In this document: piece by piece, positions 5,498 to 43,905 of the stretch
Layout: every line of letters starts with the position of its first letter
How positions within the stretch are numbered: the first letter of the stretch is position 1
Assembly (NCBI GenBank): GCA_036556205.1
Contig: DATBJW010000008.1
Span: forward strand, 1,977-65,976
Direction: 5' to 3'
Source: Gemmatimonadota bacterium
GTDB taxonomy: Bacteria; Gemmatimonadota; Gemmatimonadetes; JACCXV01
Length of the DNA: 64,000 nucleotides
Translations under genes and position numbers: made by a program
The notes under the pieces: model-generated
The model's database searches: none
What the model was told of the DNA's origin: nothing
The model's input: the letters and a program-made list of their open reading frames with translations, nothing else

Positions 5498-5501
5498 CCC
5501 C

Positions 5502-6980: not shown

Positions 6981-7697
6981 ATGCCTCACGCCGCCACGCA
7001 CGAGCCGGCCGACGCCTTCCCTCCGGAGCCTCGCGCGCCCGCGCTGGTCGTCTTCGCCAAGGCTCCTATCCCCGGACGCGTGAAGACGCGGCTCGCGCCC
7101 CGGGTCGGCGCGGCCGCGGCCGCCGAGCTCCAGAGCGCCCTGCTGCGCGACACGGCCGACATCGTGCTCGACGCGACCGGCAGGCGCCGGCCCCCGCCCG
7201 CCGTCTGGTGCGCGGCGGCCGAGCGAGGGGACGAGCCCGTGCTGCGCTCGCTTTTGCCGGCCGGCTTCGGGATGATCGCGCAGGGGCCCGGCGACCTGGG
7301 CGAGAGGATCGCCCGCGTCCTGGGCGCCGTGCACGGCGGCCGCATCCCCGTCCTGGCGCTCGGCGCCGATTGCCCGGACCTGACCACCGAGTTGCTGGAT
7401 CGAGCCCTGGAGGCGCTCGCGCGCACGGGCGCGGCGCTGGGGCCGGCCGCGGACGGAGGCTACTGGGCGATCGGGCTCGCGCGCTTCGACGCCGCTCTCT
7501 TCGCGGACATGCCCTGGTCCACGGCCGACCTGGCCCGACGCACGCGACTCCGATTCGCCGAGCGGGGGACCGCCTTCGAGGAGCTCCCCGAGCTGCGCGA
7601 CCTGGATCGCTACGACGATCTGCTCGCGTGGGCGCGCTCGCCGAACCCCGGCTTCCGGCGCACGCTCGCCTGGTGCCGGGCGCGCGGGCTCGCGTGA
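6981..7697 (+). CDS. DUF2064 / TIGR04282-type glycosyltransferase-like protein
   Basis: The pattern LVVFAKAPIPGRVKTRLAP .. GDLGERI .. LGADCPDL .. GPAADGGYWAIGL .. MPWSTADL .. LRDLDRYDDL follows the DUF2064 family layout, recognised from memory. Confidence 0.75.
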   Translation: MPHAATHEPADAFPPEPRAPALVVFAKAPIPGRVKTRLAPRVGAAAAAELQSALLRDTADIVLDATGRRRPPPAVWCAAAERGDEPVLRSLLPAGFGMIAQGPGDLGERIARVLGAVHGGRIPVLALGADCPDLTTELLDRALEALARTGAALGPAADGGYWAIGLARFDAALFADMPWSTADLARRTRLRFAERGTAFEELPELRDLDRYDDLLAWARSPNPGFRRTLAWCRARGLA

Positions 7698-9633: not shown

Positions 9634-9654
9634 ACCGCTCCTGCACCGGCTCCT

Positions 9655-10377
9655 ATGTTCCCCCCGATGAGCTCTTCCCGCTCCGCCAGCCGGCCGGCCG
9701 GCCGCCTTCCCGGCGTCGATCCAGCGCGCGAGCGTCCGCCTGGACGGGAAGAGCGACGCGCGCTCGCGCGCCTCGCGGCGGCCGTCGCGGCGCGAGACGA
9801 CCGCGCGGTCGAGCGTGAGGCCGCCCGACTCTCGGGCCGGCTCGCGCGGCGCTGCGCGGAGGAGACGGTGCTCCAGACCTACCTCTTCGCGGGCTTCCCG
9901 GCCGCCATCAACGGGTTTGCCGCGCTCGAGCGGGCGTGGCCGCCGGAGCGCGCGGACGCGCCCGCGCGGGACGGCCGCGAGCCGGGTCCCGATCCGGCCG
10001 GCTGGAAGGCGCGCGGCGAGCGGCTCTGCGCGCGCGTGTACGGTCCGCGGTACCGGCGGCTGCGCGCGCGCATGCGGGCCCTTTCGCCGGCGCTCGACGA
10101 CTGGATGGTCGTCGAGGGCTACGGCAAGACGCTCTCGCGCCCCGGGCTGGATGAGGCCACCCGCGAGATCTGCGCGGTGGCGGCCCTGGCCGCGCTGGGG
10201 GCGACCCGCCAGCTCGAGGCCCACCTCGAGGGCGCGCGGCGGCTGGGCGCGGACCCGGTCCTGATCGACGAGGCGGCCCGCGACGCGGTGCGCCGGCACG
10301 TTCCGCGCGCGCGCCGGGCCGAGCTCGAGTCCCTGCTCGCCCCGCCGCGGCGGCCTTCGCGCGGAGCTCGCCCGTGA
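9655..10377 (+). CDS. Carboxymuconolactone decarboxylase (AhpD-like) family protein
   Basis: The C-terminal half (LDDWMVVEGYGKTLSRPGLDEATREICAVAALAALGATRQLEAHLEGARRLGA) looks like a CMD domain. The true start may lie downstream of 9655. Confidence 0.55.
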   Translation: MFPPMSSSRSASRPAGRLPGVDPARERPPGREERRALARLAAAVAARDDRAVEREAARLSGRLARRCAEETVLQTYLFAGFPAAINGFAALERAWPPERADAPARDGREPGPDPAGWKARGERLCARVYGPRYRRLRARMRALSPALDDWMVVEGYGKTLSRPGLDEATREICAVAALAALGATRQLEAHLEGARRLGADPVLIDEAARDAVRRHVPRARRAELESLLAPPRRPSRGARP

Positions 10378-10841
10378 CCGGCGCCGACGCGACCCGTGGA
10401 GCCGTGCAGCGCATGCGGGTGCGTGTCCGCTACGCCGAGACCGACCAGATGGGAGTCGTCTACCACGCACACTACCTGGTATGGATGGACGTCGGACGCA
10501 CCGAGCTCCTTCGCGCCCTGGGTCATCCCTACGACGCGCTGGAACGCGCCGGCCTGCTGTTCGCGGTCTCGGACGTGAGCTGCCGCTTCGTTGGCGCGGC
10601 CCGCTACGGCGACGAGGTGGAGGTGGAGACCCGCGTCGCCGAGGTGCGCAGTCGCCAGGTGTGTTTCCGCTACCGGATCACGAGGGGCGGCGGCGAGCCC
10701 GTCGCGGAAGCATCCGCCACCGTGCTCGCACTCGGGCGCGACCGCCGGCCGCGAAGGATCCCGGCCGAGCTGCTCGCCTCCCTGCGCCCTCCGACCGGCG
10801 CGCGCCGCGCGCCCGTCCTCGAAGACGTGGCTCTGACATGA
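10374..10841 (+). CDS. YbgC/4HBT-type acyl-CoA thioesterase
   Basis: The hot-dog fold signature RVRYAETDQMGVVYHAHYLVWMDVGRTELLRALG is present. The start could be ATG 10413. The stop overlaps the next gene's ATG (ATGA). Confidence 0.8.
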   Translation: MTGADATRGAVQRMRVRVRYAETDQMGVVYHAHYLVWMDVGRTELLRALGHPYDALERAGLLFAVSDVSCRFVGAARYGDEVEVETRVAEVRSRQVCFRYRITRGGGEPVAEASATVLALGRDRRPRRIPAELLASLRPPTGARRAPVLEDVALT

Positions 10842-13771
10842 AAGGGCGCGGGCCACGAAAGGCCGGTCGGCGGGTCGGCGAGCGCGTTTGCCGCGGGCCG
10901 ATCGCGGCCGCGCTCGGGCTGCTGGCACTCGTGCTGGCGACAGCCGAGGCCTCCGGCCAGATCGTTCCCTTCGGCAAGAACAAGATCCGCTACGAGGACT
11001 TCGACTGGCACGTGCTGCACGGCGAGCACGTGGACGTCTACTTCTATCCCGAGGAGGCGGAGGTGGCGCAGGTCGCCCTGCGCGAGGCGGAGCTGGCCTA
11101 TGCCGACCTGGAGGTCAAGTTCGACTATCATCCGACGGAGCGGGTCCCGCTCATCATCTACAGCTCGCACGTCCACTTCGAGCAGACCAACATCCTGTCC
11201 GGCTTCATCCCCGAGGGTGTGGCCGGGTTCACCGAGTACCTCAAGGGCCGCGTCGCGCTCCCCTTCAACGGGTCCTACTACGACTTCCGGCACGTGATCA
11301 TCCACGAGCTGGTGCACGTCTTCCAGCTGCGCAAGATGACGCACGAGCGGGACCTGCATCCGAGCAGCGGCTCCCTGGGCCTGCCGCAGTGGTTCACGGA
11401 GGGGCTGGCGGAGCACTGGTCGAGCCAGTGGGGGTCGGAAGGGAATCTCTTCGTGGGCGACTTCGTGCTCTCCGGCAACCTGCCGCACATCCAGGAGCTC
11501 TACGCCTACAACGGAACGTTCGCGATCTACAAGCTGGGCCAATCCGTGCACGACTTCCTGGGGCGGGAGTTCGGCGAGGAACGCATGGCGCTGTTCTTGG
11601 AGAGCCTGTGGAAGTACGACAACCTGGACAGCGCCTTCAAGGCGATCTACGGGCTCAGCCTGGACGAGCTGGACGCGCGCTGGCGCTACGACCTGGAGCA
11701 GCGCTACTACCCTCAAGTCTCGCGCGCGACGCCGCTCGACCTCGCGGCCCAGCGCGTGATCACGAAGAGCCGCGCCAACTTCAAGCCCACCGTGGTGCCG
11801 CGGCCCGACAGCCTGCCCTCCCGCTTCTGCTACGTCTCGCCGCGGACCGGCTTCACGAACATCTATTGCGCGGACCTGGCCGGCGTGGACCGCCACGTCG
11901 AGACTGTGCTCGAGACGGAGCGGCGGCCCGAGTTCGAGTCCATCCACGGGTTCACCTCCAGTCTCGACGCCAATCTCCGGGGCGAGCTGGCGTTCGTCTC
12001 CAAGTTCGGGGAGAGCGACGCGCTGTTCGTGATGGACCTGGCGTCACGGAAGATCCGGCTCCAGCGCCGCTTCCCGGACCTGGTGGCGCTGTCGAGCCCG
12101 AGCTGGGATCCGTCGGGGGAGGCGCTGAGCTTCGTGGGGCTCTCAAAGGCCGGGTTCTCCGACCTCTACATCTATCGGATCCCGGCGGACAGCCTGGAGC
12201 GCCTGACGGAGAGCCGCTTCCTCGAGGAGGATCCGGCCTGGTCGCCCGACGGCGCCTGGATCGTCTACGCCACCGACAGCATCCCCGGGGGGAACCGCGG
12301 CTACAAGAACCTGGTCGCGCGCGAGCTCGCCACCGGCAGGTTGCGCCCGCTCACGCGCGGCCCCTGGCGCGACACCGATCCGCGCTGGTCGGCCGACGGA
12401 CGGCGCGTGGTCTTCACGTCGGACCGGTCCGGCCTGGCGGCGCTCTACGAGGTGGACCTGCAGGGCGACGGCCGCCGGCTCATCGAGTCGAGCGGGGGCG
12501 TCCTGGACGGCGAGCCGTTCCGCACGCGCGACCCCGACGGCACGGAGCGCGAGGCGCTGCTCTTCGCGGGCTACGAGAACGGCCAGGCCGCGATCTGGAG
12601 CGCGACCGTGCCCGACAGCGGAGGCGAGGCGATCACGCTGGCCCCCGACACCGCCTCCCTCGGTTGGAGCTGGCAGGAGGTGCTGGCTGACTCGGGCCGG
12701 GCCGTGGCCTCGGCCCCGTACCGCCGGCGCTTCTCGCTGGACCTGGCCGCGGGAGGGACGGCGGTGGGCGGCAACACCAGCGTCGAGGCGGTCCAGGCGC
12801 TCTTCAGCGACTTCCTGGGCGACCATCTGATCCTGCTCGAGCTCTACAGCTTCACCCAGGACGTGGAGAACTTCTTCGACAACCTGGGCGGCGAGGTCAC
12901 CTACCTGAACCTGAAGCGGCGTCTGAACTGGGGGGCGACCGCCTACCGGGTGAATGCCAACTACCTGACGAACGGGACGCTCAACTCGCCGCCCGAGCTG
13001 TACCGGGTCGACCGCTACGGCGGAGGTGGGATCCTCAGTTATCCGCTCTCCAAGTTCCGGCGCATAGAGACGCGCCTCAACCTCGAGCACAACGACACGT
13101 TCGCGATCGGGCAGTCGTTCGAAGGCGGCCTGGTGGATCGGACCGGGATCATCGGGATCACGGGGGTCTCATACATCAAGGACAACACGCTCTGGCTGCC
13201 CACGGGACCCATCGACGGCGAGCGTTACAACGTGAGCCTGGGAGGCACCGCCAACCTGTCCGACGCTGAGGCCGAGAGCTTCTTCGCCGTCTTCGACTAC
13301 CGGCGCTACTTCCGGCTCGGCCTGCAGAGCGCCTATGCGGTGCGCGGCCAGTTCCTCTACTCCGACGGCCTCCTGCCGGTGCGCTTCGTGATGGGCGGCT
13401 CGGGCACCCTGCGCGGATATCCGCGCTTCGAGCTGCTGGGGTCGCGGTACGCGCTCGTGAACCAGGAGCTGCGCTTCCCCCTGCTGACGGGCTTCGCGTT
13501 CGGCACGCCCATCCTGGGCGCGGTCCGTTTCCCGGGGGTCCAGGGGGCGCTGTTCCTGGACCTGGGAAACGCGTGGGAAGAGGTCGAGCAGGAGGAGTTG
13601 GGGTTTCCCGGCGTGCTCGGGAGCTACGGGCTGGGCCTGCGGATGAGCCTGGGCGGCCCACTCGTGCTGCGGCTGGATTTCTCGCGACTCTTCGAGATCG
13701 ACGACAAGCGAGACCTGCGCGTCTACAACGACAAGAACCGCATCGACTTCTTCATCGGGTTCAACTACTGA
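10838..13771 (+). CDS. Outer-membrane fusion protein: signal peptide + HExxH peptidase (MA_2-like) domain + TolB-like PD40 repeats + Omp85/surface-antigen beta-barrel
   Basis: ATG 10838 is in frame in ORF 10481..13771. The signal peptide is AAALGLLALVLATAEASGQ. HELVH lies at nt 11303-11317 with a downstream TEGLAEHW. Repeated SPxWSPDG / DPRWSADGRRVVFTSDRSG motifs mark PD40 repeats. The C-terminal region GGSGTLRGYP..VNQELRFPL..GALFLDLGNAW ends FFIGFNY, as in an Omp85 barrel. Confidence 0.8.
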   Translation: MKGRGPRKAGRRVGERVCRGPIAAALGLLALVLATAEASGQIVPFGKNKIRYEDFDWHVLHGEHVDVYFYPEEAEVAQVALREAELAYADLEVKFDYHPTERVPLIIYSSHVHFEQTNILSGFIPEGVAGFTEYLKGRVALPFNGSYYDFRHVIIHELVHVFQLRKMTHERDLHPSSGSLGLPQWFTEGLAEHWSSQWGSEGNLFVGDFVLSGNLPHIQELYAYNGTFAIYKLGQSVHDFLGREFGEERMALFLESLWKYDNLDSAFKAIYGLSLDELDARWRYDLEQRYYPQVSRATPLDLAAQRVITKSRANFKPTVVPRPDSLPSRFCYVSPRTGFTNIYCADLAGVDRHVETVLETERRPEFESIHGFTSSLDANLRGELAFVSKFGESDALFVMDLASRKIRLQRRFPDLVALSSPSWDPSGEALSFVGLSKAGFSDLYIYRIPADSLERLTESRFLEEDPAWSPDGAWIVYATDSIPGGNRGYKNLVARELATGRLRPLTRGPWRDTDPRWSADGRRVVFTSDRSGLAALYEVDLQGDGRRLIESSGGVLDGEPFRTRDPDGTEREALLFAGYENGQAAIWSATVPDSGGEAITLAPDTASLGWSWQEVLADSGRAVASAPYRRRFSLDLAAGGTAVGGNTSVEAVQALFSDFLGDHLILLELYSFTQDVENFFDNLGGEVTYLNLKRRLNWGATAYRVNANYLTNGTLNSPPELYRVDRYGGGGILSYPLSKFRRIETRLNLEHNDTFAIGQSFEGGLVDRTGIIGITGVSYIKDNTLWLPTGPIDGERYNVSLGGTANLSDAEAESFFAVFDYRRYFRLGLQSAYAVRGQFLYSDGLLPVRFVMGGSGTLRGYPRFELLGSRYALVNQELRFPLLTGFAFGTPILGAVRFPGVQGALFLDLGNAWEEVEQEELGFPGVLGSYGLGLRMSLGGPLVLRLDFSRLFEIDDKRDLRVYNDKNRIDFFIGFNY

Positions 13772-14967
13772 GCGGGCGCCTCCGGCGCACCGGAGGCCGC
13801 GGTCGCGGGAGCCGACGTTCCCGCCCCGGGGCCCGCGTCCAGGAGCGCGAGGGTGCCCCGGTCCGTGACCACGGCCAGGCGTCCCTCGACCCAGACCGGC
13901 GTCGCCGCCGCCCCCGCGAGCTCGGCGCGGCCCAGAACGGCGCCGTCGGCTGCCGCGAGCGTCCACACCGCGCCCGCGAGATCGGCCACGGCCACGCGGC
14001 CGCCGTCGGGCGAGACGGCGGGAGGTGCCGCCGCCAGCGCATCGAGGTCGCGCTCCCAGAGCGGCGTCCCGGACGGCAGGGCGTAGGCCCGGAGGCGCCG
14101 GTCCTTTCCGGCCGCGACCAGGAGGCCCGGCCCGGCGGCGGGGGCCCGCTGGAGCGGCGCCGAGGACACGTCCAGGGTGCCCGCGGCGAGCTCGTGGTCG
14201 AAGGAGCGGATGCGGCCGTCGAAGGTGGCCGCCGCGAACCCGCCCCCGGGGAGCGGGACGAGCTCCGGCGTGGCGGGGGATCCGAGGTCGAGGGATCCCA
14301 GGCGACGGCCGGTGGCCGGATCCAGGCGGACGAGCGTTCCCGCGGCCGAGAGGACGATCAGATCGCCGTCCGCGAGAAGCGAGCCGCCCGGGAAGACGCC
14401 CTCCGCGCGCGTCTCCCAGATCTGGTCGCCCGTGCGGGTGTCCACGGCACGGATCCAGCCGCCCAGCGAGACGAAGAAGGCGCGCGCCTCCTCCACCAGG
14501 GGCGGCTGCGAGACGTCGCCCACCTTGCGGGTCCAGCGCGTCAGTCCGCTGCGCGGGTCGAGGGCGTAGGCCGTGGCGTCGGGGTGCGGCGAGACGACGA
14601 TCAGCTGGTCGCCCGCGAGTCGCGGAGACGCCTGGAAGCCGCGCGCGAGCCCGTGCGACCAGAGCTCCCGGCCCGTGGTCAGCTCGAACGCCTTGACGTT
14701 CGAGCGCGCGGTCGCCACGTACAGCCTGCCCCCCGCGGCCAGCGGCTGGGCCGTGGCCCCGCGCCCGGCACCGACCTGCCAGACCACGGCGAGCGGCGGG
14801 GGAAGCCCGGCGTCCGAAGCGGCGGGGGTCGTGGCCTCCGGTTCCGCCGGGCCGCTCTGGGCGGCGAACGTCGGGGTCGTGAGCAGGAGACCCGCGAGCG
14901 TGCTCGCGACGAAAGCCGGTCGCGCTCGAGGTGCTCGAGGATTCTCTGCCGAAGGGTCGCGGGTCAC
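13765..14967 (-). CDS. PQQ-like (BamB-like) beta-propeller repeat protein, secreted
   Basis: GTG start. The signal peptide is [21 protein letters not shown]. Repeated motifs (G.LYVA.....V.A.D..TG...W) are typical of PQQ/BamB propellers. The stop overlaps the convergent upstream gene by 7 nt. Confidence 0.7.
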
Positions 14968-15122
14968 AGTGCCAAGCTAGACCCGCCGCCTGGCGTGGGC
15001 AACGCGACCAGGCCCGGCGGGGGCGTGAGGGTGACAGGAGGAGGTCGCGGCGGGCCGGCCGGCAGCTTCGAGCCGGTGAACCTCGGCCGCGCCCCGAGCC
15101 GGGCGCGCGAAGGATGGTGAGC

Positions 15123-16454
15123 ATGGACCCTGTCTCGGCACTGGCGCCAGGCGACGCCTCAACCGTCGTCCGGGTGCGCGACCTGGGCGCTCACGTGGGC
15201 CGTGAGGTCACGGTGCGCGGTTGGCTCACCACCAAGCGCTCGAGCGGCAAGATCCGGTTCCTGGTCCTGCGGGACGGCAGCGGCCTCCTGCAGTGCGTGA
15301 TGGCGAAGGCGAGCGTGGACGAGGCCACCTTCGCGGCCTACGACGTCCTCACGCAGGAGACCTCGCTCGAGGCCTCGGGGACGGTCCGCGCCGACGCGCG
15401 CGCGCCGGGGGGCTTCGAGCTGGACGTCCGGCGGCTGGCGCCGTTCCAGATCGCGGAGGAGTTCCCGATCAGCCCCAAGGAGCACGGCACCACCTTCCTC
15501 ATGGACCACCGGCACCTGTGGCTCCGCTCGAGCCGGCAGTGGCACATCCTGCGCGTGCGCGCCGAGATCGTCCGGCGCATCCGGGAGTTCTTCGATTCAC
15601 GCGGATTCGTGCTGATCGACACGCCGCTGCTGACCGGAGCCATCGGGGAATCGGCGGGGACGCTCTTCGAGACCGAGTACTTCGACCTGGGGAAGGCCTA
15701 CCTGGCGCAGACCGGTCAGCTCTACGTGGAGGCGGCCATCTACGCCTTCGGCGACGTCTACTGCTTCGGGCCCACGTTCCGCGCCGAGAAGTCCAAGACG
15801 CGGCGGCACCTGACCGAGTTCTGGATGGTGGAGCCCGAGATGGCCTGGTGCGACTGGCGGCGGAACATGGAGGTGCAGGAGCAGCTGGTCACGCACATCG
15901 TTCAGGGCGTGCTCGAGACCCGGCGCGAGGACCTGAAGGCCATCGGGCGCGACCTCTCGAAGCTGGAGGGGATCCATCCCCCGTTCCCACGCGTCTCCTA
16001 CGACGAGGCGATCGAGACGCTCCGCGCCGGGGGGTCGCCCATCGAATGGGGCAGCGACCTCGGTGCCGAGGACGAGACCGCGCTCGCCTCGCGCCACGAG
16101 CGGCCGCTCTTCGTGTACAAGTATCCGCGGGTGGCCAAAGCCTTCTACATGAAGTCCGACCCCGAGCGCCCCGAGGTCGTGCTCTGCGACGACCTGCTGG
16201 CGCCCGAGGGCTACGGCGAGATCATCGGCGGGTCGCAGAGGATCGACGATCCCGACGAGCTCGTGCGCCGGATCGAGGAGGAAGGGCTGCCGCGCGCGTC
16301 CTACGAATGGTACATCGACCTGCGCCGCTACGGCTCGGTGCCCCACGCGGGCTTCGGCCTGGGCGTCGAGCGCACGGTGGCCTGGATCTGCGGGCTGCCG
16401 CATGTGCGCGAGACGATCCCGTTCGCGCGCATGATCAACCGCATCACGCCGTAG
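15123..16454 (+). CDS. asnS: Asparagine--tRNA ligase
   Basis: Class IIb aaRS with an OB-fold N-terminus and [24 protein letters not shown], which is AsnRS-like. AGGA lies 8 nt upstream of ATG 15123. An in-frame ATG at 15114 is an alternative start. Confidence 0.88.
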
Positions 16455-35117: not shown

Positions 35118-37025
35118 TTGCCCGATGAGCGTCTGCCGGCGGGTCCCGTGCTGATCGACGAGCTGAAGGGCATCCAGTCCGAGTCGGGCTTCCTGCCGCG
35201 CGAACGCCTTCTCGAGCTCTCCCGCCGCGAAAGCGTCCCGCTCTACCAGATCGAAGCCGTCGCCAGCTTCTATCCTCTTTTCCGGCAAACGCCTCCGCCC
35301 GCGGTCGAGGTCGCGCTCTGCGCCGACATGAGCTGCCACCTGGCGGGGGCGGAGCGGCTGGCCGAAGCTCTCCGCGCCGATTTCGAGGCGCTGGGCGCGT
35401 CGGGGGAAGCCGTGGTCCAGGTCCAGGAGGGCAACGTGCACGGGCTGGACGGCCTCGAGAGGGAAGGGCGGGAAGCGGCTCCGCCCGGCGTGCCGCGGCT
35501 GGAGTACCGCGCGGTGTCCTGCCTGGGTCTCTGCGACCGCGCGCCCGCGTGCGCCCTGAACGGCCATCCGGAAGGATCGGCGACCCTGGAGCGTATCCGC
35601 GCGTACGTGGCCGCCGGCCTCGAGACGGCACGGAGCGGCTCCGGGCTCCAGAACGGCAAGGGCGCGCCGCCCGGCGCACATGCGTCACCGCCCGAGGCGC
35701 AAAGCCGGCCCGCGCACGCCGGGGACGGCCGCGCGGCGCCGCGGGTCGACAGCGCGCGCACGGTTCCCGCGGCCACCGCGCCCGACCCCGAAGGCCCACG
35801 CATCGATCCGCACCCGCCGGGAGCGCCGTACGGAGCCCTGAGACGGCTGCTCGAATCCGGCGACCGCGAGAGCGTGATCCCGGCCCTCAAGGAGAGCGGG
35901 CTGCGCGGGCTCGGCGGAGCCGGGTTCCCGACGGGTGCCAAGTGGGATTTCACGAAGCAGGCGGCGGGCTCTCCCAAGTACGTGGTCTGCAACGCCGACG
36001 AGTCCGAGCCGGGCACCTTCAAGGACCGCGACGTGCTGGAGCGTTTCCCGCACCTGGTTCTGGAGGGGATGCTGATCGGCGCCTACGTCGTGGGCGCGAG
36101 CCGCGCCACGCTCTACCTGCGCCACGAGTACCACGCCGCGCGCGCGCGGCTGGAGGAGGCCATCGGAGACCTGGCGGCGAGAGGTCTGGCCGGGGAGAAC
36201 ATCCTGGGCAGCGCCTTCTCGTGCGAGATGGAGCTCTTCGTGAGCGCCGGCGGCTACATCTGCGGCGAGGAGACGGCCCTGCTCGAGGCGCTGGAAGGGA
36301 AGCGCGCCGAGCCGCGCAACAAGCCGCCCTTCCCGGGGGTGGTGGGCCTCCACGGCAAGCCCACGCTCATGAACAACGTCGAGACGTTCGCCATGGTCCC
36401 CGCGATCCTGACCCGCGGTGCGGCCTGGTTCAAAGGGCTCGGCGAGAACGGAGGCTCGGGCCTCAAGTACTTCGCGCTCTCGGGCCACGTGGCCCGGCCG
36501 GGGGTGTACGAGGCCTGGCTGGGCGTGCCCGCCCGGCGTTTCATCGAGGAACAGGGCGGCGGCGTCTCGGGAGGTCGCAAGCTCAAGGCGTTCGCTCCCG
36601 GCGGCGCCTCCTCGGGGTTCCTGCCGGCCGCGCTCTCCGACCTGCCGCTCGACTTCAAGCCGCTGGCCGACGCGGGCTCGATGCTGGGCACCGGAGCGGT
36701 CGTGGCGATCGCAGAGGGGACCTGCATGCTGGACCTGGCCCTGAACGTGGTGCGCTTCTTCCGCAACGAGTCCTGCGGCAAGTGCGTGCCCTGCCGCGAG
36801 GGGACCGAGGAGCTGGTCGGCATCCTGGAGCGGATCCGCGGCGGGAAGGGCGCGCCGCGAGATCTGCAGCTCATCGAGGGGCTCTCGGACACGATGGCCA
36901 TGACCTCCATCTGCGGCCTCGGTCAAGCCGCGCCGCTCCCGATCACGTCGGTGTTGCGCCACTGGAGAGACGAGGTCGACGCCCACGTGCTGAAGAAGGT
37001 CTGTCCGGAAGGAGTCTGCCTGTGA
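35118..37025 (+). CDS. NAD-dependent formate dehydrogenase diaphorase subunit (NuoE-like [2Fe-2S] + NuoF-like FMN/NAD/[4Fe-4S] fusion)
   Basis: The N-terminal domain has CADMSC...CLGLCDRAP cysteines, followed by a long Pro/Ala linker. Then come the NuoF motifs GLRGLGGAGFPTGAKW, VVCNADESEPGTFKDR and ESCGKCVPCREGT. Confidence 0.85.
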   Translation: MPDERLPAGPVLIDELKGIQSESGFLPRERLLELSRRESVPLYQIEAVASFYPLFRQTPPPAVEVALCADMSCHLAGAERLAEALRADFEALGASGEAVVQVQEGNVHGLDGLEREGREAAPPGVPRLEYRAVSCLGLCDRAPACALNGHPEGSATLERIRAYVAAGLETARSGSGLQNGKGAPPGAHASPPEAQSRPAHAGDGRAAPRVDSARTVPAATAPDPEGPRIDPHPPGAPYGALRRLLESGDRESVIPALKESGLRGLGGAGFPTGAKWDFTKQAAGSPKYVVCNADESEPGTFKDRDVLERFPHLVLEGMLIGAYVVGASRATLYLRHEYHAARARLEEAIGDLAARGLAGENILGSAFSCEMELFVSAGGYICGEETALLEALEGKRAEPRNKPPFPGVVGLHGKPTLMNNVETFAMVPAILTRGAAWFKGLGENGGSGLKYFALSGHVARPGVYEAWLGVPARRFIEEQGGGVSGGRKLKAFAPGGASSGFLPAALSDLPLDFKPLADAGSMLGTGAVVAIAEGTCMLDLALNVVRFFRNESCGKCVPCREGTEELVGILERIRGGKGAPRDLQLIEGLSDTMAMTSICGLGQAAPLPITSVLRHWRDEVDAHVLKKVCPEGVCL

Positions 37026-39994
37026 TCCGCCGCGCAGACGGCGAACCCTCCGCGACCGTCGTCGAGCGCCCCGACGCTCCCGCCGGCGAGCGCCGGGGCG
37101 CGCCTCCGCCCCAACCCCCGGTCACCCTGACCGTGGATGGGCGCGAGGTCACGGTTCCGGCCGGCAGCAGCGTGTGGGAGGCGGCGCGTGCGCTGGGGAT
37201 CGAGATCCCCGTCCTCTGCCACGACCCGAAACTGCGGCCGGTGGGCGTGTGCCGCACGTGCGTCGTGGAAGTGGACGGGGCGCGCGTGTTCCCGGCCTCG
37301 TGCGTGCGGCCCGCCGAGCAAGGGATGGTCGTGCGCACGCACACGCCGCGGCTCGAGAGCCAGCGACGGGTGCTCGTCGAGCTCCTCATGGCCGATCATC
37401 CCACGCCCTGCGACAAGGAGCGCGCGCGGGGGGAGTGCGAGCTCGAGGCGCTCGCGCGGCGCTACGGCGTGGCCAACGGCCACGGACCCGTGCCGCTCGA
37501 GGCCCGCCCGCCCCGGCCGCGCGACGACTCGTCGCCCGTCATCGCCGTGGACCACTCCGCCTGCATCCTCTGCGACCGCTGCATCCGCGCCTGCGACGAG
37601 GTGCAGCACAACATGGTGATCGGCAGGAGCGGCAAGGGACACCTGGCGCTCATCAGCTTCGACGATCGTCAGCCGATGGGCGAGTCCACCTGCGTCGCCT
37701 GCGGCGAGTGCATGGCCGCCTGCCCCACGGGCGCGCTCACGGACAAGTTCCTGGTCGTCCCGTTCGTGCCGCCCGAGGTGAAGACGGTGGACTCCGTGTG
37801 CCCGTACTGCGGGGTGGGCTGCGGCGTCACGCTCGAGGTCAAGGACGACACGATCGTGCGCGTGCAGGGGCGCGAGGACGCGCACAACGAGGGGCGGCTG
37901 TGCGTGAAGGGCCGCTACGGCTACGACTACGAGAGCCATCCGCAGCGACTCACCATGCCGCTCATCCGGCGCGAGGCGTTCTACCCGAAAGGTCCGCTTT
38001 CAGCGGATGTTCGGGCGGACGATGCGGCGCGGCGCGGGCGGGCGAAGGACGCGGGGGGGAACGGTGGCGAAAGGGGAGGTCGCCGCCGCCGCAAGCCGGG
38101 CGGACCGGTGGACTACAAGGAGGTGCTGCCCGCCTTCCGCGAAGCCTCATGGGACGAGGCGCTGGAGCTGGTGGCGCGGAGACTGCTCGAGATCCGCGAC
38201 TCCCACGGGCCCAGGGCGCTGGCGGGGTTCGGCTCGGCCAAATGCTCGAACGAGGAGGCGTACCTCTTCCAGAAGCTGATCCGCACCGTCTTCCGCAACA
38301 ACAACGTGGACCACTGCACGCGGCTCTGCCATGCGGGTTCCGTGGCGGCCATGCTGGAGCAGGTCGGCTCGGGCTCTGTGTCGGACGTGTTCCACAACGC
38401 GCACCGCGCCGACGTGGCGCTGGTGGTCGGCTCCAACACGACCGAGAACCATCCGGTGGCGGCGACCTACGTCAAGGACGCCGCGCAGAAAGGCACGCGG
38501 CTGATCGTGATCGACTCGCGGCGCCACGCGCTCTGCGACCACGCCGATCTGTTCCTGCAGCTGCGGCCCGCCTCGGACGTGGCGCTCTTCAACGCCATGC
38601 TCCACGTGATCTTCCGGGACGGGCTCCAGAACGACGAGTTCATCGCCAGACGCACCGAGAACGTCGAGGCGCTGCGCGCCCTGGTCGAGCCGTACACCCC
38701 GGAGCTCGCCGAGAAGATCAGCGGCATCCCGGCGGCGACGATCGAAGAGGTGGCGCGGGCCTACGCGCGGGGGCCGAACTCGATCATCTTCTGGGGGATG
38801 GGCATCTCGCAGTCGGTCCACGGGACCGACAAGGCGCGCTGCCTGATGAACCTGGTGCTGGCTACCGGGCAGGTGGGACGGCCGGGCACGGGCTTCCACC
38901 CCCTGCGCGGCCAGAACAACGTCCAGGGCGCCTCGGACATGGGGCTCATCCCGATGGTGTTCTCGGGCTACCAGGACGTGGCCGATCCGCAGATTCGCGA
39001 GCGGTTCGAGCGCGCCTGGGGCGCGACCCTCGACCCCCAACCCGGCCTCACCGTGGTCGAGATCGTGGGCGCGGCGCTCGAGCACCGGATCCGCGGCATG
39101 TACATGATGGGTGAGAATCCGTTCCTGTCCGACCCCAACACCGCGAAGGTGCGCAAGGCCCTGGCCTCGCTCGACTTCCTGGTCGTGCAGGACATCTTCA
39201 TGACCGAGACGGCGGAGTTCGCCGACGTCGTGCTCCCCGCCTCGACGGCCTTCGAGAAGACCGGGACGTATACGAACACGGACCGCCGCGTCCAGATCGG
39301 GCGCACGGCCGCGGCTCCCCCGGGTCAGGCGCGGGTGGACTGGGAGATCACGCAGGACATCGCGAACCACATGGGGGCCGGCTGGAGCTACGCGGGCCCC
39401 GAGGAGGTCTTCGCCGAGATGGCGAGCCTCACCCCGGACTACGCCGGCATCACGTATCCAAAGATGGGGCAGATGGGGATCGTGTGGCCGTGCCCCACCC
39501 CGGAGCATCCGGGCACCGAGGTCATCTTCACGGACGCCTTCCCGCGCGGCCGCGGACTCTTCTCGCCGGCCGAGTTCGCGGACCCGGCGGAGCTGCCGAG
39601 TCCCGAGTACCCGCTGGTGATGATCACGGGCCGCACCCTCCAGCACTGGCACACCGGAACCATGACGCGGCGCGCCCGCGTGCTCAGCGAGCTGCAGCCC
39701 GATCCCTTCGTCGAGATGCACCCTGCGGACATGGACACGCGGGGGATCGCCGACGGCGACACCGTCCGCGTGAGCTCCCCCCGCGGCTCGATCGAGCTCA
39801 GGGCGGTCGTGATGGGCCAGGTCGCGCAGGGCACGGTCTTCATCCCCTTCCACTTCAAGGAGGCCCCGGCGAACGCCCTCACATCCGAGAAGCTGGATCC
39901 CTTCGGAAAGATCCCCGACTACAAGTTCTGCGCGGTGCGCGTGGAGCTGGTCGCGAGCGCGGCGCCGGTCGGGGCCGGGGAAGAGGCCGGTTAA
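37022..39994 (+). CDS. fdhA: Formate dehydrogenase alpha subunit (NuoG-like Fe-S N-terminus + Mo/W-bisPGD domain), cysteine type
   Basis: GTG 37022 overlaps the upstream stop (GTGA) and is in frame in ORF 35549..39994. Evidence: 2Fe-2S and 4Fe-4S Cys clusters, CPYCGVGCG, the active-site stretch HCTRLCHAGSVA (Cys, not TGA/Sec), and the C-terminal molybdopterin-dinucleotide-binding domain ..DYKFCAVRVE. Confidence 0.9.
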   Translation: MIRRADGEPSATVVERPDAPAGERRGAPPPQPPVTLTVDGREVTVPAGSSVWEAARALGIEIPVLCHDPKLRPVGVCRTCVVEVDGARVFPASCVRPAEQGMVVRTHTPRLESQRRVLVELLMADHPTPCDKERARGECELEALARRYGVANGHGPVPLEARPPRPRDDSSPVIAVDHSACILCDRCIRACDEVQHNMVIGRSGKGHLALISFDDRQPMGESTCVACGECMAACPTGALTDKFLVVPFVPPEVKTVDSVCPYCGVGCGVTLEVKDDTIVRVQGREDAHNEGRLCVKGRYGYDYESHPQRLTMPLIRREAFYPKGPLSADVRADDAARRGRAKDAGGNGGERGGRRRRKPGGPVDYKEVLPAFREASWDEALELVARRLLEIRDSHGPRALAGFGSAKCSNEEAYLFQKLIRTVFRNNNVDHCTRLCHAGSVAAMLEQVGSGSVSDVFHNAHRADVALVVGSNTTENHPVAATYVKDAAQKGTRLIVIDSRRHALCDHADLFLQLRPASDVALFNAMLHVIFRDGLQNDEFIARRTENVEALRALVEPYTPELAEKISGIPAATIEEVARAYARGPNSIIFWGMGISQSVHGTDKARCLMNLVLATGQVGRPGTGFHPLRGQNNVQGASDMGLIPMVFSGYQDVADPQIRERFERAWGATLDPQPGLTVVEIVGAALEHRIRGMYMMGENPFLSDPNTAKVRKALASLDFLVVQDIFMTETAEFADVVLPASTAFEKTGTYTNTDRRVQIGRTAAAPPGQARVDWEITQDIANHMGAGWSYAGPEEVFAEMASLTPDYAGITYPKMGQMGIVWPCPTPEHPGTEVIFTDAFPRGRGLFSPAEFADPAELPSPEYPLVMITGRTLQHWHTGTMTRRARVLSELQPDPFVEMHPADMDTRGIADGDTVRVSSPRGSIELRAVVMGQVAQGTVFIPFHFKEAPANALTSEKLDPFGKIPDYKFCAVRVELVASAAPVGAGEEAG

Positions 39995-40008
39995 GCGGGA
40001 CGATCACC

Positions 40009-40506
40009 ATGTCCATCCAGGTCCCGCTCACCCGCCGATCCTTCCTGCGCTCCTGCGCGCTCGCCACCGGGGCCGCGGCCGGCGTCCTTGGCGGCCCCGG
40101 CCGACTGCTCGCGTGGACGGCCGCGCCGGCCGACGACGACACGCCCGGCGAGGCCGTGCGAAAGGTCCTCAGCGGCCTCTTCGGAGATCGGCCGCTCCGC
40201 AGGGGCCACGTCGAGCTGACGCTGCCCGAGAACGCCCCCGACGGGCGCACGGTGCCGGTCTTCCTCGAGAGCGACCTGCCCATGGAGCCCGGCAACTACG
40301 TGAAGGCGCTCCACCTGCTTGTGGACAAGAACCCGGACATCCATCTGGCCGCCTTCTACTTCACGCCGGCCTCAGGCAAGGCCTCGATCGATACGCGGAT
40401 CAAGATGCGGGCGACCTCGTGGGTGCGAGCCATCGCCGAGACGAGCCGCGGCGAGCTGTGGTACGCGTCGTTCAAGGTTTTCCCGGCCAGCAACGGGTGC
40501 GGCTGA
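40009..40506 (+). CDS. soxY: Sulfur carrier protein SoxY (Tat-exported)
   Basis: ATG 40009 is in frame in ORF 39484..40506. The Tat motif is LTRRSFLRS. The C-terminal swinging arm ends ..VFPASNGCG, carrying the conserved carrier cysteine. Confidence 0.85.
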   Translation: MSIQVPLTRRSFLRSCALATGAAAGVLGGPGRLLAWTAAPADDDTPGEAVRKVLSGLFGDRPLRRGHVELTLPENAPDGRTVPVFLESDLPMEPGNYVKALHLLVDKNPDIHLAAFYFTPASGKASIDTRIKMRATSWVRAIAETSRGELWYASFKVFPASNGCG

Positions 40507-40850
40507 TGCACGCCCGCGCCACGCACCCGATCGGCGAAGCCAAGATCCTGCTGCCGCCGGGCATCCAGCGCGACAGCCTGATCTACGTCCGCACGCTGAT
40601 CTCGCACCCCATGGACACCGGCTTCTTCAAGGACCACGCCGGCAAGCCGATCCCGGCCCACTTCATCGACGCGGTGACCGTGACGTACGGCGGAGAGGAA
40701 GTGGCGCGCTTCACGTGGACCTCGGGGATCAGCCGCGATCCCTTCCTGACCTTTCCCCTGCGCGCGACCCGCGAGGCGCCGCTGGCCGTCACGTGGAGAG
40801 ACAACCGCGGCGGGGTCTACCGCCAGTCCGTGGACGTGGCCTTCTCCTGA
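40506..40850 (+). CDS. soxZ: Sulfur carrier partner SoxZ
   Basis: ATG 40506 overlaps the soxY stop by 1 nt. Motifs are LISHPMDTGFFKD..GKPIPAHFI and SGISRDPFLTF. It has no signal peptide, as expected for SoxZ. Confidence 0.85.
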   Translation: MHARATHPIGEAKILLPPGIQRDSLIYVRTLISHPMDTGFFKDHAGKPIPAHFIDAVTVTYGGEEVARFTWTSGISRDPFLTFPLRATREAPLAVTWRDNRGGVYRQSVDVAFS

Positions 40851-42664
40851 GCCCTCCCTGCACGGGCCTCGTGGCCGTCTGGCTCGCCTCGCTTGGCGCG
40901 GGGCCGGCCGCCGGAGCGGCCGACCGCGACTCCCTGAAAGCCTATCTCGTCCGCGAGCTCGCGCCCGCCGCGTACGCCGTGCCGGGCGACAGCGGCCGGG
41001 GTGTCGAAGGCCGCGCGAACGCCGGGTTCGTGGTGACGGACGAAGGTGTGGTTGTGATCGACGCGCTCGGCAGCCCGCTCCAGGGGCGGCGGCTGGTCGC
41101 CTCGATCCGCTCCGTCACCGACCTGCCGATCCGCTGGCTGATCCTCACCCATCACCATCCCGATCACGCCTTCGGCGCCGCGGCGCTGCGCGAGGCAGGC
41201 GCGCAAGTGCTGGCCCATCCCGACGCCGAGATGCAGGCGGGCGCCGGAGGAGACTCCAGCCTGGCGGCCGACTGGGCCGCCGTGGTGGGGGAGGAGGAGA
41301 TGCGGGGGTTTACGTTCGCCGACCGGCCCGACGTGCCGGTGACGCGCGATACCACCCTGAGTCTGGGAGACACGCGGCTCGTGATCGGCTATCCCGGCCC
41401 GGCCCACACGCGCGGCGACCTCTTCGTCTGGCTGCCGGCGGCGCGCGTGCTCTTCGCCGGCGATCTCGTCGTGGAAGACGGGATGACCATGCTTAATGAC
41501 GGGAGCTCGGCCGGGCTGCTCGCCGCGCTGGACCGGCTCGCGGCGCTGGACCCCGCCGTGCTGGTCCCCGGTCACGGCCGGATCCCGAACGCTCCGGGCG
41601 CGTTGATCGCCGAAACCCACGCCTACGTGGACAGCCTGCGCGGCGCCATGCGGCAGGCCTTCGAGAGCGGGACGTCGCTGAATGCGGTCGTCGCCTCCCT
41701 GCCTCCCGCCGACCCCGACCGCCCGGTCTCATTCGCGTCGCGCCGGCGTCGCAACGCGGTCCGGGTCTACGTGGAGATCGAGCGCCAGGCCATGGGCCTG
41801 GACTCGTCTGCGGACCAGGAACCGGCGGACGTCTCGACGCCGGTCCCGAGCGTGGTGTCCACGGCAGACCTTGCGAAGCTCGTCGAGCGGGGGGAGGTCA
41901 CGCTCGTGGACGTGCGCGCGGACTTCGCCCAGTACCTGCAGGGTCACCTGCCGGGTGCGGTCTATCTGAACTCCGAGACGCTGCGCGCGGAGGACGGCGG
42001 CCTGCCGAACCAGCTGCTCCCGCGCGCGAGCTACGCCACGCTGTTCGCGCGCCTGGGCGTGCGCGGGGAGCGCCCGGTCGTGATCTATTCTTCCGGCGAG
42101 GCGCGCAACATCGACGCCACGTATCTGGCCTGGATCCTGTCGGGCTTCGGCCACTCCGACGTGCGCGTTCTGGACGGGGGCTACGCCAAGTGGCAGATCG
42201 AGGGGCGGCCGCTGGCGCGCAAGTACCCGCGCTACGACGTGATCGAGCCGCCGGCGGGCGAGTTCCGCCCCGAACGAGCCTCGCTCGACGACGTGCGCGC
42301 GGCGCTGAAGGCGAAGGACGTGGTGCTGGTGGACGCCCGGCCGCCGGACCAGTACGCCGGCGAGGCCGGCGCGCAGCTCCGCCGCGGCCACATCCCGGGG
42401 GCGGTCAACCACTACTGGCAGAGCGACCTCGAGGGCGACTTCGCGAAGGTCTGGAAGCCCCGCCAGGAACTCCGCGCCGCCTACGAGGCGCAGGGCGTCA
42501 CGCCGGACAAGCGCGTCATCGCCTACTGCAACGGCGGGCTCGAGTCGAGCCACGTCTACTTCACGCTGCGCGCCCTGCTCGGCTACCCCGACGTGCGGGT
42601 CTACGACGGCTCCTGGACGGAGTGGTCGGAGCGCGAGGACCTGCCCATCGAGACCGGGCCCTGA
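40793..42664 (+). CDS. Secreted metallo-beta-lactamase-fold (SoxH-like) protein fused to tandem rhodanese (sulfurtransferase) domains
   Basis: In frame in ORF 40319..42664. The start is uncertain: GTG 40793 gives an RR-containing signal-like N-terminus, and GTG 40871 is the alternative. The MBL motif is LILTHHHPDH. Two rhodanese domains follow: the first lacks a Cys and the second has the active-site loop CNGGLESS and ..YDGSWTEW. Confidence 0.75.
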   Translation: MERQPRRGLPPVRGRGLLLSPPCTGLVAVWLASLGAGPAAGAADRDSLKAYLVRELAPAAYAVPGDSGRGVEGRANAGFVVTDEGVVVIDALGSPLQGRRLVASIRSVTDLPIRWLILTHHHPDHAFGAAALREAGAQVLAHPDAEMQAGAGGDSSLAADWAAVVGEEEMRGFTFADRPDVPVTRDTTLSLGDTRLVIGYPGPAHTRGDLFVWLPAARVLFAGDLVVEDGMTMLNDGSSAGLLAALDRLAALDPAVLVPGHGRIPNAPGALIAETHAYVDSLRGAMRQAFESGTSLNAVVASLPPADPDRPVSFASRRRRNAVRVYVEIERQAMGLDSSADQEPADVSTPVPSVVSTADLAKLVERGEVTLVDVRADFAQYLQGHLPGAVYLNSETLRAEDGGLPNQLLPRASYATLFARLGVRGERPVVIYSSGEARNIDATYLAWILSGFGHSDVRVLDGGYAKWQIEGRPLARKYPRYDVIEPPAGEFRPERASLDDVRAALKAKDVVLVDARPPDQYAGEAGAQLRRGHIPGAVNHYWQSDLEGDFAKVWKPRQELRAAYEAQGVTPDKRVIAYCNGGLESSHVYFTLRALLGYPDVRVYDGSWTEWSEREDLPIETGP

Positions 42665-42696: not shown

Positions 42697-43905
42697 GTGC
42701 TCCACGGCCTGCGCCAGCTCGCCACACCGCTTGCGGACGGCGGGATGCGGGTCGTCGCCGACGCGTGGGTCGCCTTCGAAGAGGGGCGCGTCGCGGCGGT
42801 CGGGTCGGGGACGCCGCCGGCAGGAGGCGAGCGGATCGACGCCGACGGCATGGTCGCGATCCCGGGCTTCGTGGACTCCCACACGCACGCCGTCTTCGGC
42901 AGGAGCCGCGCCGACGAGCTGGAACGACGCGTGCGGGGCGAGAGCTACGCCTCCATCGCCGCTTCCGGAGGAGGCATCCTGGCCTCGGTGGCCGATCTCC
43001 GCCGGCGCTCCGAAGACGAGCTGGTCGAGCTCGCCCGACCGCGACTCCTGGCGATGCTGGCTTCGGGCACCACGACCGCCGAGGTCAAGAGCGGCTACGG
43101 GCTCTCGCTCGACGACGAGCTCAAGACCCTGCGGGCGATCGAGCGCCTGCGGAGCCTCGTTTCGCTGGAGCTGGTCCCGACCTTCCTCGGCGCTCACGCC
43201 GTGCCGCCCGAATTCCTGGCCGATCGCGCGGGATACGTGCGGCTGCTCGCGCGCGAGATGCTTCCCGCGGTGGCGGACCAGGGGCTGGCGCGCTTCTGCG
43301 ATGTGTTCTGCGACCGGGGGGCGTTCACGCTCGAGGAAGCCGAGACCGTGCTGAGCGCCGCGCGGGATCTGGGGCTCGGGCTCAAGGTCCACGCCGACGA
43401 GTTCGAGAACCTGGGCGCGACGGAGATGGCGGTGCGCCTGGGAGCCGCGTCCGCCGATCATCTGCTGCGCGTGGGGGAGAGCGGGATCCGGGCCCTGGCG
43501 GGGAGCCGAACGGTGGCGACGCTCCTGCCCGGCACGGCGCTCTTTCTCGGGCTGCCATACGCGCCCGCGCGCCGGCTGCTCGAAGCCGGGGCCACGCTCG
43601 CGCTCGCGACCGATTTCAATCCCGGGAGCTGCCCCTGCGCTTCGATGGCTACGGTCTGGACGCTGGCCAGCTGCGGCATGGGGGTTCCGCTCGACGATGC
43701 GCTGCGCGCGCTCACGCTGGGGGGCGCGCGGGCGCTCGGCCTGCAGGACGAGGTCGGTTGCGTGGCGCCCGGCCGGCGCGCCGACCTCTCGCTCTTCGAC
43801 GTCGCCGACTACCGCGAGATCCCCTACTTCTTCGGCGAGAACCGCTGCGCGGGCGTGGTGCGCGGGGGGAGCGTGGTGTGGTCGCGAAGCTCCCCGCAGA
43901 GCTGA
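42697..43905 (+). CDS. hutI: Imidazolonepropionase
   Basis: GTG 42697 is in frame in ORF 42190..43905. Motifs are PGFVDSHTHAVFG, SGGGILASV, TTAEVKSGYGL, HADE and ATDFNPGS. Confidence 0.92.
   Translation: MLHGLRQLATPLADGGMRVVADAWVAFEEGRVAAVGSGTPPAGGERIDADGMVAIPGFVDSHTHAVFGRSRADELERRVRGESYASIAASGGGILASVADLRRRSEDELVELARPRLLAMLASGTTTAEVKSGYGLSLDDELKTLRAIERLRSLVSLELVPTFLGAHAVPPEFLADRAGYVRLLAREMLPAVADQGLARFCDVFCDRGAFTLEEAETVLSAARDLGLGLKVHADEFENLGATEMAVRLGAASADHLLRVGESGIRALAGSRTVATLLPGTALFLGLPYAPARRLLEAGATLALATDFNPGSCPCASMATVWTLASCGMGVPLDDALRALTLGGARALGLQDEVGCVAPGRRADLSLFDVADYREIPYFFGENRCAGVVRGGSVVWSRSSPQS

Follow-up and report, generated by a model that had tools for sequence, protein, structure and literature searches.

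A trio made up of a rhodanese, a fused SoxYZ-like carrier, and a SoxH-like metallo-beta-lactamase (MBL) is conserved with alcohol dehydrogenases that depend on pyrroloquinoline quinone (PQQ) and lanthanides (PMC12997753). In the ped cluster of Pseudomonas putida KT2440, the trio consists of the rhodanese-domain protein PP_2666, the fused SoxYZ-like PP_2677, and the SoxH-like metallohydrolase PP_2678, while the homologues in Methylorubrum extorquens lie near xoxFGJ, in an operon that also holds a thioredoxin-like gene; the functions speculated for the trio are disulfide or cofactor maturation, or the shielding of PQQ from sulfur nucleophiles (PMC12997753). Lucinid and other symbionts carry SoxYZ-S2 with a PQQ alcohol dehydrogenase and soxH, and SoxYZ-S4 clusters with fdhAB and xoxF, where soxH is nearby and a rhodanese gene (rhd) is drawn in the islands, and the authors inferred that these loci serve carbon metabolism and not sulfur metabolism (PMC11237559). 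The same arrangement occurs in Hyphomicrobium (PMC11582611), and META1p1703-1705 of Methylorubrum extorquens, like the Pseudomonas putida proteins, exemplify this quinoprotein relay set, which is already catalogued and named in databases and is biochemically uncharacterized. Here, we analyzed a 64,000-nt stretch (hereafter, the window) of contig DATBJW010000008.1 from a Gemmatimonadota bacterium (assembly GCA_036556205.1), in which soxY, soxZ, and a single open reading frame (ORF) encoding an MBL fused to a tandem rhodanese follow the genes of an NAD-dependent formate dehydrogenase (FDH). At somewhat better than even confidence, we conclude that this three-gene module represents a variant, specific to Gemmatimonadota, of the periplasmic cysteine relay found with PQQ/lanthanide methanol and alcohol dehydrogenases and one-carbon (C1) oxidation, and not a remnant or minimal form of lithotrophic Sox. 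A preliminary description of the window had instead proposed a minimal periplasmic sulfur module, an interpretation that was supported in part and gives way here to that of a divergent relative of the SoxYZ-like/SoxH-like/rhodanese set (PMC12997753, PMC11237559, PMC11582611).

The carrier pair was confirmed (all window coordinates refer to the + strand). The soxY gene (40009..40506, with an ATG start) encodes a 165-aa periplasmic cysteine carrier that matched PF13501 at 98.1 bits and whose closest solved chain is Thermus SoxY (4uwq_B; E 5.5e-12). Its predicted twin-arginine (Tat) signal motif, TRRSFLRS (40030..40053), scored 18 bits against the TAT_signal model TIGR01409 (cut-off 16.7), and at least 63 of the 72 SoxY orthologues carried the motif RR.[FLIV][LIVM]. 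The protein ends in ...PASNGCG, and the penultimate residue of this NGCG arm, Cys164 (codon 40498..40500), aligns with the GGCG end of 4uwq_B and is the presumed site of covalent attachment; a [TS]LNGC[GV] C-terminus, with its Cys, was found in 69 of 72 related loci. The TGA of soxY and the ATG of soxZ share one A, i.e., the genes overlap by 1 nt, and soxZ (40506..40850) encodes a 114-aa protein without a signal peptide (PF08770, 94.6 bits; PDB 2ox5_Z, E 1e-9). SoxY fell below the cut-offs of TIGR04488 (88.6 bits vs. 125), TIGR04557 (79.8 vs. 140), and TIGR04487 (77.7 vs. 172), whereas SoxZ exceeded that of TIGR04490, SoxZ_true (88.2 bits; cut-off 76), and scored 65.7 bits on TIGR04557 (cut-off 140).

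The third gene (40793..42664) lies in the third reading frame and encodes an MBL::rhodanese::rhodanese fusion of 623 aa from a GTG at 40793, from which residues are numbered here, or 597 aa from an alternative GTG at 40871. It matched PF00753 at 109.9 bits and, in two stretches, PF00581 at 131.1 bits. The SoxH-like MBL-fold domain spans residues ~50-335 (40940..41797) and contains an HxHxDH motif (41150-41167) within THHHPDH (residues 119-125), together with H205 (41405), D224 (41462), and H261 (41573). Across 50 aligned sequences, H122, D124, H205, D224, and H261 were invariant and H120 and H125 were at least 90% conserved. Its top NCBIfam families were TIGR04559 (169.5 bits; cut-off 280) and TIGR04558 (131.6 bits; cut-off 300), ranked first and third of 72 overall, which are the quinoprotein relay system zinc metallohydrolases 2 and 1, respectively. 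The closest structure to the MBL half is 8D2Z, an unpublished Burkholderia MBL-superfamily structure, and a literature search on this PDB entry returned nothing relevant. The preliminary description had allowed that the MBL might be a dioxygenase, and a persulfide dioxygenase was considered as a candidate and rejected: family scores opposed it (the GloB model matched residues 153-258 only, at 40 bits, vs. 72-170 bits for class-B/SoxH-like models on the MBL domain), as did a poor superposition on 3TP9 (template modeling [TM] score 0.26-0.33, 18% identity). Since the full binuclear ligand set is kept, the matching models are of the hydrolase type, and the fit to 3TP9 is poor, a dioxygenase activity is unlikely.

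A linker (residues 338-347; 41804..41833) joins the MBL to the rhodanese half. It is predicted to be flexible, with a predicted local distance difference test (pLDDT) score below 50, varies more in length than any other part of the alignment, and coincides with the point at which the gene is split in most related loci. Rhodanese domain 1 (41846..42232) is non-catalytic, with SSGEAR and no Cys at the position of the active-site loop, while rhodanese domain 2 (42275..42652; PF00581 stretch 498-613) is predicted to be catalytic, as its CNGGLES loop (residues 579-585) contains Cys579 (codon 42527-42529). Both C579 and N580 were invariant in 50 sequences. This arrangement of an inactive N-terminal and a Cys-bearing C-terminal domain is the two-domain layout of thiosulfate and mercaptopyruvate sulfurtransferases (TST/MST), and the rhodanese half superposed on the TST-type structures 1e0c, 1uar, and 3hwi with TM scores of 0.85-0.88 on the target (1uar, E 4e-43). 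The best-matching model was the SseA equivalog NF008557, although its cut-off was not reached (139.7-142.8 bits; cut-off 250), and at E<=1e-5 the rhodanese part did not match the model of PQQ-associated CXXCW rhodaneses, which we take to be TIGR03865. An AlphaFold2 model of the fusion (mean pLDDT 86) contained two confidently predicted modules with a predicted TM score of 0.53, their mutual orientation being undefined in the model.

The choice of start codon bears on whether the fusion is exported. The GTG at 40793 overlaps soxZ by 58 nt and yields an Arg-rich n-region, a 20-residue hydrophobic core (LLLSPPCTGLVAVWLASLGAG), and an AGA|AD site, whereas the GTG at 40871, 20 nt after soxZ, yields a very short, uncharged leader. 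Hydropathy places the predicted signal peptide in residues 1-46 (40793..40930), for which pLDDT was below 50. The upstream in-frame GTG and its open frame recur in a 91%-identical relative (locus L094), and homologues from other assemblies have clear signal-like N-termini, one with a lipobox-like LSAC. Export of the fusion protein is therefore likely, as judged from these sequence features. The preliminary description thus held up with respect to the three genes and their motifs and overlap, the two candidate GTG starts, the pairing of a SoxH-like MBL with a tandem rhodanese of one inactive and one active domain, probable export of the fusion protein, and the biochemically uncharacterized state of a SoxYZ-coupled MBL-rhodanese.

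The quinoprotein relay and the module both combine a SoxY/SoxZ carrier that has a single cysteine and is predicted to be exported with a SoxH-like MBL hydrolase and a rhodanese, without SoxAXB, and both are probably tied genomically to PQQ/XoxF dehydrogenases and formate dehydrogenase. It differs in having separate SoxY and SoxZ proteins with a terminal NGCG arm, rather than a fused carrier with an internal Cys, one MBL rather than two, and a two-domain TST/SseA rhodanese fused to the MBL in place of a single-domain CXXCW protein; moreover, it is usually not beside xoxF. The SoxYZ-S4/S2 loci of lucinid, Kuphus, and Bathymodiolus symbionts and Hyphomicrobium likewise combine a divergent SoxY(Z) with FDH, xoxF, or a PQQ alcohol dehydrogenase, and have soxH and a rhodanese nearby, but their carriers are SoxY-SoxZ fusions from Proteobacteria, most of which have canonical Sox as well (PMC11237559), whereas here the hydrolase is fused to a tandem rhodanese in a phylum whose sampled genomes have no SoxB (see below). 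The cytoplasmic persulfide dioxygenase (PDO)-rhodanese fusions (CstB, PRF/Blh; 3TP9) also place an MBL-fold domain N-terminal to one or more rhodanese domains; however, theirs is a glyoxalase II/ETHE1-like mono-iron dioxygenase, while the protein described here has a class-B/SoxH-like binuclear MBL, a predicted signal peptide, and coupling to SoxYZ.

More than 80 full-length database homologues of the fusion contained both domains at 50-91% identity, all of those with a taxon name belonging to Gemmatimonadota. The best 80 loci in species-representative genomes were likewise all from Gemmatimonadota, with SoxY adjoining the MBL gene in 73 and SoxZ in 75 of the 80. A fused single ORF was the minority form (15 of 76 loci) and characterized the clade nearest to the window; adjoining separate genes encoded the MBL and the tandem rhodanese in ~48 loci, and in ~12 the MBL had no rhodanese following it. 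This fusion or fission of the gene at the linker suggests a single process in which both the hydrolase and the rhodanese take part. One apparent exception to the separate carrier genes, a 270-aa "fused SoxYZ" in locus L006 (L006:7087-7899, on the same contig as L013), was rejected: its matches to SoxY and SoxZ of the window lie in two different frames and are separated by non-homologous sequence, which probably reflects an indel in a long-read assembly rather than a true fusion. An unbiased clustering of neighbors among six-frame ORFs at 83 loci was also set aside: overlapping shadow ORFs are numerous at high G+C, and it returned only the housekeeping neighbors of the largest clade, without functional information.

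To what metabolism the module belongs was addressed in an evenly drawn sample of 151 Gemmatimonadota genomes, 27 of which were module-bearing, i.e., SoxY-positive, always with a single copy. SoxY adjoined the MBL gene of the module in 26 of the 27, the remaining genome (G023) having a canonical relay instead. MCH, a marker of formaldehyde oxidation through tetrahydromethanopterin (H4MPT), was present in 24/27 module-bearing genomes vs. 6/124 others (Fisher, 3e-19), and the association persisted when counted by genus (12/14 vs. 3/69; Fisher, 4e-10). In two of the six genomes that were positive for MCH and negative for SoxY, truncated matches to the fusion lay at contig ends. The PQQ methanol/ethanol dehydrogenase model TIGR03075 matched in all 27 module-bearing genomes vs. 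50/124 others (Fisher, 1e-9). Since the association with the H4MPT marker and FDH is much tighter than that with PQQ dehydrogenases generally, these results point to C1 flux rather than enzyme maturation.

The module is also physically linked to C1 genes. Ten of the 15 fused-architecture loci lay inside islands for H4MPT or methanofuran biosynthesis and XoxFGJ. On one long Joint Genome Institute (JGI) contig, the three module genes stand among mch, ftr, fhcA/C-like, PTPS, CitG, RimK, and 4HFCP synthase genes, and on a second contig the module is bordered on one side by H4MPT-pathway and cofactor genes and on the other by XoxF-like PQQ dehydrogenases, which are accompanied by cytochrome c and a MoxJ-like protein. 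A PQQ dehydrogenase was adjacent to the module in L006/L013, L011, and L014; none is adjacent in the window, in whose genome contig C4 carries the H4MPT cluster and contigs C94 and C53 carry xoxF/xoxJ/xoxG. There, C94:23332-24510 carries a XoxF-like gene cut by the contig end, and C53:13879-18057 carries a 55-aa PQQ-dehydrogenase fragment with MoxJ-like, cytochrome c, and beta-propeller genes; C94 and C53 are probably parts of a single xoxFJG locus. Published work on Gemmatimonadota methylotrophy makes no mention of the module. Several small genes accompany it in the methylotrophy islands, namely one upstream of soxY for a ~220-aa exported protein with ~8 conserved cysteines and an ELHVHTPTTC motif (L005:6149-6814, L006:6097-6756) and one downstream of the fusion for a ~91-aa membrane-anchored protein with six conserved cysteines (CHVC...; L005:9958-10236, L006:9577-9852). 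Neither of these two conserved hypothetical genes had a Pfam match, and both are absent from the window's genome. A 206-aa hypothetical protein with a JAMM-like HTHP...SPHD motif is also encoded beside the module at L005:10293-10913 (- strand), and a 55%-identical copy occurs on contig C17 of the window's genome.

Genome G023 shows the canonical relay within the same phylum. Its relay proteins passed the cut-offs of TIGR04557 (276 bits) and TIGR04559 (406 bits), and its genes are ordered FDH alpha, FDH diaphorase (NuoE/F-like), MBL, fused SoxYZ, MBL, then divergent XoxF and MoxJ-like (L087, corresponding to G023:C1:10000-29000; about 3616-15347). MCH is absent from G023, and its cluster looks like a methanol-to-CO2 set without the H4MPT route. 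A pterin-4a-carbinolamine dehydratase gene is also present in this cluster. The window's proteins were 30-38% identical to the G023 relay proteins, the MBL being 33% and 30% identical to the two MBLs of that genome.

In the window, the module directly follows the FDH genes. A fused NuoE/NuoF-like diaphorase subunit of an NAD-dependent FDH of the FdsG-FdsB type (35118..37025; TIGR01959 nuoF_fam, 487 bits over residues 238-624) is followed by the FDH alpha subunit (37022..39994; TIGR01591 Fdh-alpha, 777 bits, cut-off 666), whose GTG start overlaps the diaphorase stop by 4 nt and whose stop is separated from soxY by a 14-nt gap. The same diaphorase gene precedes FDH alpha in L094. Downstream of the fusion, the next gene is hutI, encoding imidazolonepropionase (42745..43905; TIGR01224, 411.7 bits, cut-off 298), in agreement with the neighbors named in the preliminary description, and neither promoter-like sites nor + strand terminator-like sites were found between the FDH genes, the module, and hutI. 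That description had considered the position after an NAD-FDH to be unexplained. However, the adjacency of FDH, SoxYZ, and SoxH recurs in G023, in the SoxYZ-S4 loci (PMC11237559), and in the close relative, and the module tracks H4MPT and XoxF genes, such that the placement is largely explained by a recurrent FDH/C1 linkage. Only one soil metatranscriptome contained any of the stretch, at low depth; its contigs, with sequence identical to that of the window, covered 39865-40015 (across the fdsA stop and soxY start), 39995-40139, and 41634-41897, lending weak RNA support to transcription across the fdsA-soxY junction.

Several observations weigh against the conclusion that the module is a relay variant serving C1 oxidation. 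The module-positive genomes cluster in three families, so the co-occurrence may in part reflect shared ancestry, and 50 genomes have a PQQ dehydrogenase without the module. The largest clade of relatives, in which the genes are split, has housekeeping neighbors, with an aminotransferase and an epimerase on one side and an amidohydrolase and hemB/hemL on the other; an amine-oxidase-type (HemY-like) oxidoreductase is also among its conserved neighbors. All of the window's proteins scored below every relay-family cut-off, the rhodanese is of the SseA/TST type and not the CXXCW type of the proteobacterial trio, and the scores of SoxY and SoxZ on the "true" Sox models were slightly above those on TIGR04557. 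The RNA evidence consists of a few low-depth contigs, for which DNA carry-over is possible. Lastly, systems of this kind are experimentally uncharacterized, and random barcode transposon-site sequencing (RB-TnSeq) of the Pseudomonas putida genes yielded minimal phenotypes (PMC12997753).

The alternative that survives best, although we regard it as unlikely, is a periplasmic sulfur module that would be complete in itself and have no connection with C1 metabolism. Here the rhodanese would load SoxY from thiosulfate or polysulfide, oxidation would perhaps be carried out by an unlinked SoxC-like enzyme, and the MBL would release sulfate or another product, replacing SoxB. The rhodanese SoxL is a known accessory gene of sox clusters, as is the MBL SoxH. 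Like canonical Sox of Paracoccus pantotrophus (2ox5/2oxg) and Thermus thermophilus (4uwq), the module has a SoxY with a Tat signal and a C-terminal cysteine arm and a signal-less SoxZ above the TIGR04490 cut-off; in addition, the best model of SoxY is that of true SoxY, the rhodanese is of the thiosulfate sulfurtransferase type, and in Campylobacterota a SoxH beside soxCDY2Z2 has been proposed to release sulfate (PMC10045233). The genome of the window, a metagenome-assembled genome of 2.8 Mb that is 89% complete and holds one SoxY only, also encodes a SoxC-like sulfite dehydrogenase with a Tat signal (TIGR04555, 517 bits, cut-off 420), unlinked to soxYZ on contig C78 (C78:41648-42829, - strand; about 5628-7328 of locus L093), and this gene is followed by an ORF with a cytochrome c domain (L093:4870-5952). 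The preliminary description had noted the absence of SoxAX, SoxB, and SoxCD; for SoxA and SoxB this extends to the genome, whereas the SoxC-like gene and its cytochrome c ORF qualify it for SoxCD.

In other respects, canonical Sox is a poor match. SoxY is under the TIGR04488 cut-off, its arm ends in NGCG rather than GGCGG, SoxA (TIGR04484) had no match in the 89% complete genome (SoxX was not searched separately), and the best SoxB match there was a 5'-nucleotidase relative at 97.5 bits (cut-off 550). Among the 151 genomes, SoxB, searched at E<=1e-80, was found in none, and therefore the module cannot be an accessory of canonical Sox in this phylum sample. The SoxC-like gene was present in 41 of the 151, all without SoxB, and showed no association with the module (4/27 module-bearing vs. 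37/124 other genomes); SoxCD was accordingly set aside as a general missing oxidizing partner, and a lithotrophic, sulfur-oxidizing role is left without comparative support. What the module follows instead are H4MPT and XoxF genes. Moreover, its three proteins hold no redox cofactor, so that without SoxAX and SoxCD a sulfur module would yield no electrons.

Considerably less probable, in our view, is a protein-bound aldehyde relay, in which the SoxY Cys, or its persulfide, would react with the formaldehyde that XoxF produces in the periplasm, giving a hemithioacetal, which a dehydrogenase would convert to an S-formyl thioester, and the glyoxalase-II-like MBL would release formate for the adjacent NAD-FDH. 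Such a relay is favored by the adjacency of FDH in the window and L094, in G023, and in the SoxYZ-S4 loci, which are three independent settings, and by G023, which has XoxF, a relay, and FDH without MCH, i.e., without the H4MPT route; in addition, the positions of the motifs suggest that the MBL ligand set with Asp224 resembles that of thioester-hydrolyzing MBLs. However, it would leave the rhodanese, with its invariant catalytic Cys and its fusion to the MBL, without a role, it lacks a candidate oxidant for the hemithioacetal, and the module is strongly tied to genomes that already have the H4MPT route (24/27). A periplasmic formaldehyde-to-formate route that does employ the rhodanese can be envisaged at similarly low confidence, with carrier, hydrolase-rhodanese, and XoxF acting together: the rhodanese would make a highly nucleophilic persulfide of the SoxY Cys, the persulfide would trap the aldehyde derived from methanol, the adduct would be oxidized, and the zinc hydrolase would free formate for a co-transcribed NAD-FDH. 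If true, this persulfide-primed route would be a SoxYZ-based analogue of the glutathione- and mycothiol-dependent formaldehyde pathways and would give a role to every component of the fused variant.

Slightly less credible again is a maturation or repair factor of the PQQ dehydrogenase, which would form or re-form its vicinal Cys-Cys disulfide or stabilize its cofactor, as speculated for PP_2666, PP_2677, and PP_2678. The idea was raised together with the thioredoxin-like gene of the Methylorubrum extorquens operon (PMC12997753), and a TIGR03075 dehydrogenase in every one of the module-bearing genomes (27/27) speaks for it. However, the module is missing from 50 of 77 genomes with a PQQ dehydrogenase and is thus no general requirement, the MCH association is tighter than that with the dehydrogenase, and disulfide catalysis is not an obvious activity for a hydrolase or a sulfurtransferase. 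Scavenging or detoxification of sulfur or selenium compounds (cyanide, sulfite, selenite) with no functional tie to the neighbors, the C1 linkage being island hitch-hiking, would suit a weak match of the rhodanese part to the ExtH selenite/tellurite-operon model (74 bits, cut-off 200) and the unrelated housekeeping neighbors of most split-gene loci, but is the least plausible explanation given the genus-level co-occurrence with MCH (12/14 vs. 3/69) and an FDH or XoxF adjacency that recurs in distant lineages and phyla.

The remaining features of the locus concern its surroundings. The stretch lies on contig C8 of its genome, has a G+C content of 72%, and is contained in reads from soil and rhizosphere metagenomes. 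In both the window and L094, the gene order is hutU ... M42 peptidase, FDH diaphorase, FDH alpha, soxY, soxZ, fusion, and hutI, and a gene for a Fic-domain protein (L094:156-1760, - strand) is located between hutU and the M42 peptidase gene in this relative. In metatranscriptome X25, the summed contig depth reached 62 at 36170-36503 of the window, in the portion of the FDH diaphorase gene that resembles NuoF and far above the rest of the region; sequences of a conserved segment in other organisms were probably cross-mapped here.

Returning to the relay variant that we favor, a possible working can be outlined. The module would be co-expressed with the NAD-formate dehydrogenase in the window's genome, SoxY would be exported through the Tat pathway with SoxZ bound to it, and Cys164 on the NGCG arm would hold a covalent adduct. 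Considering that a hydrolase and a TST-type rhodanese are encoded in fused and in split form, we propose that sulfane-sulfur transfer and hydrolysis take place on one carrier. Cys579 of rhodanese domain 2 may pass sulfane sulfur to or from Cys164 of SoxY, and the binuclear-metal MBL, tethered by the flexible 10-residue linker, may then hydrolyze the arm-bound species (e.g., an S-sulfonate or a thioester-type adduct) and free the carrier. In this way the module could serve periplasmic oxidation of methanol to formate, perhaps by guarding XoxF and PQQ from reactive sulfur nucleophiles, e.g., by scavenging sulfite or persulfide that attacks PQQ; alternatively, it could handle another thiol-reactive intermediate. 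Beyond the relay set already known, this analysis adds the Gemmatimonadota lineage, separate SoxY and SoxZ with an NGCG arm, a TST-type tandem rhodanese fused to the hydrolase, a phylum sample free of SoxB, and a quantitative link to H4MPT and FDH.

The trio beside XoxF/PQQ dehydrogenases is widespread in methylotrophs and Pseudomonas and has been given names in databases. The Rosetta-stone fusion of the hydrolase with a TST-type rhodanese argues that sulfur transfer and hydrolysis occur on the same carrier, and the compact three-gene form is a convenient target for reconstitution in vitro. Since Gemmatimonadota are abundant soil methylotroph candidates with XoxF, methanol oxidation conditioned on sulfur chemistry would bear on both C1 and sulfur cycling in soil.

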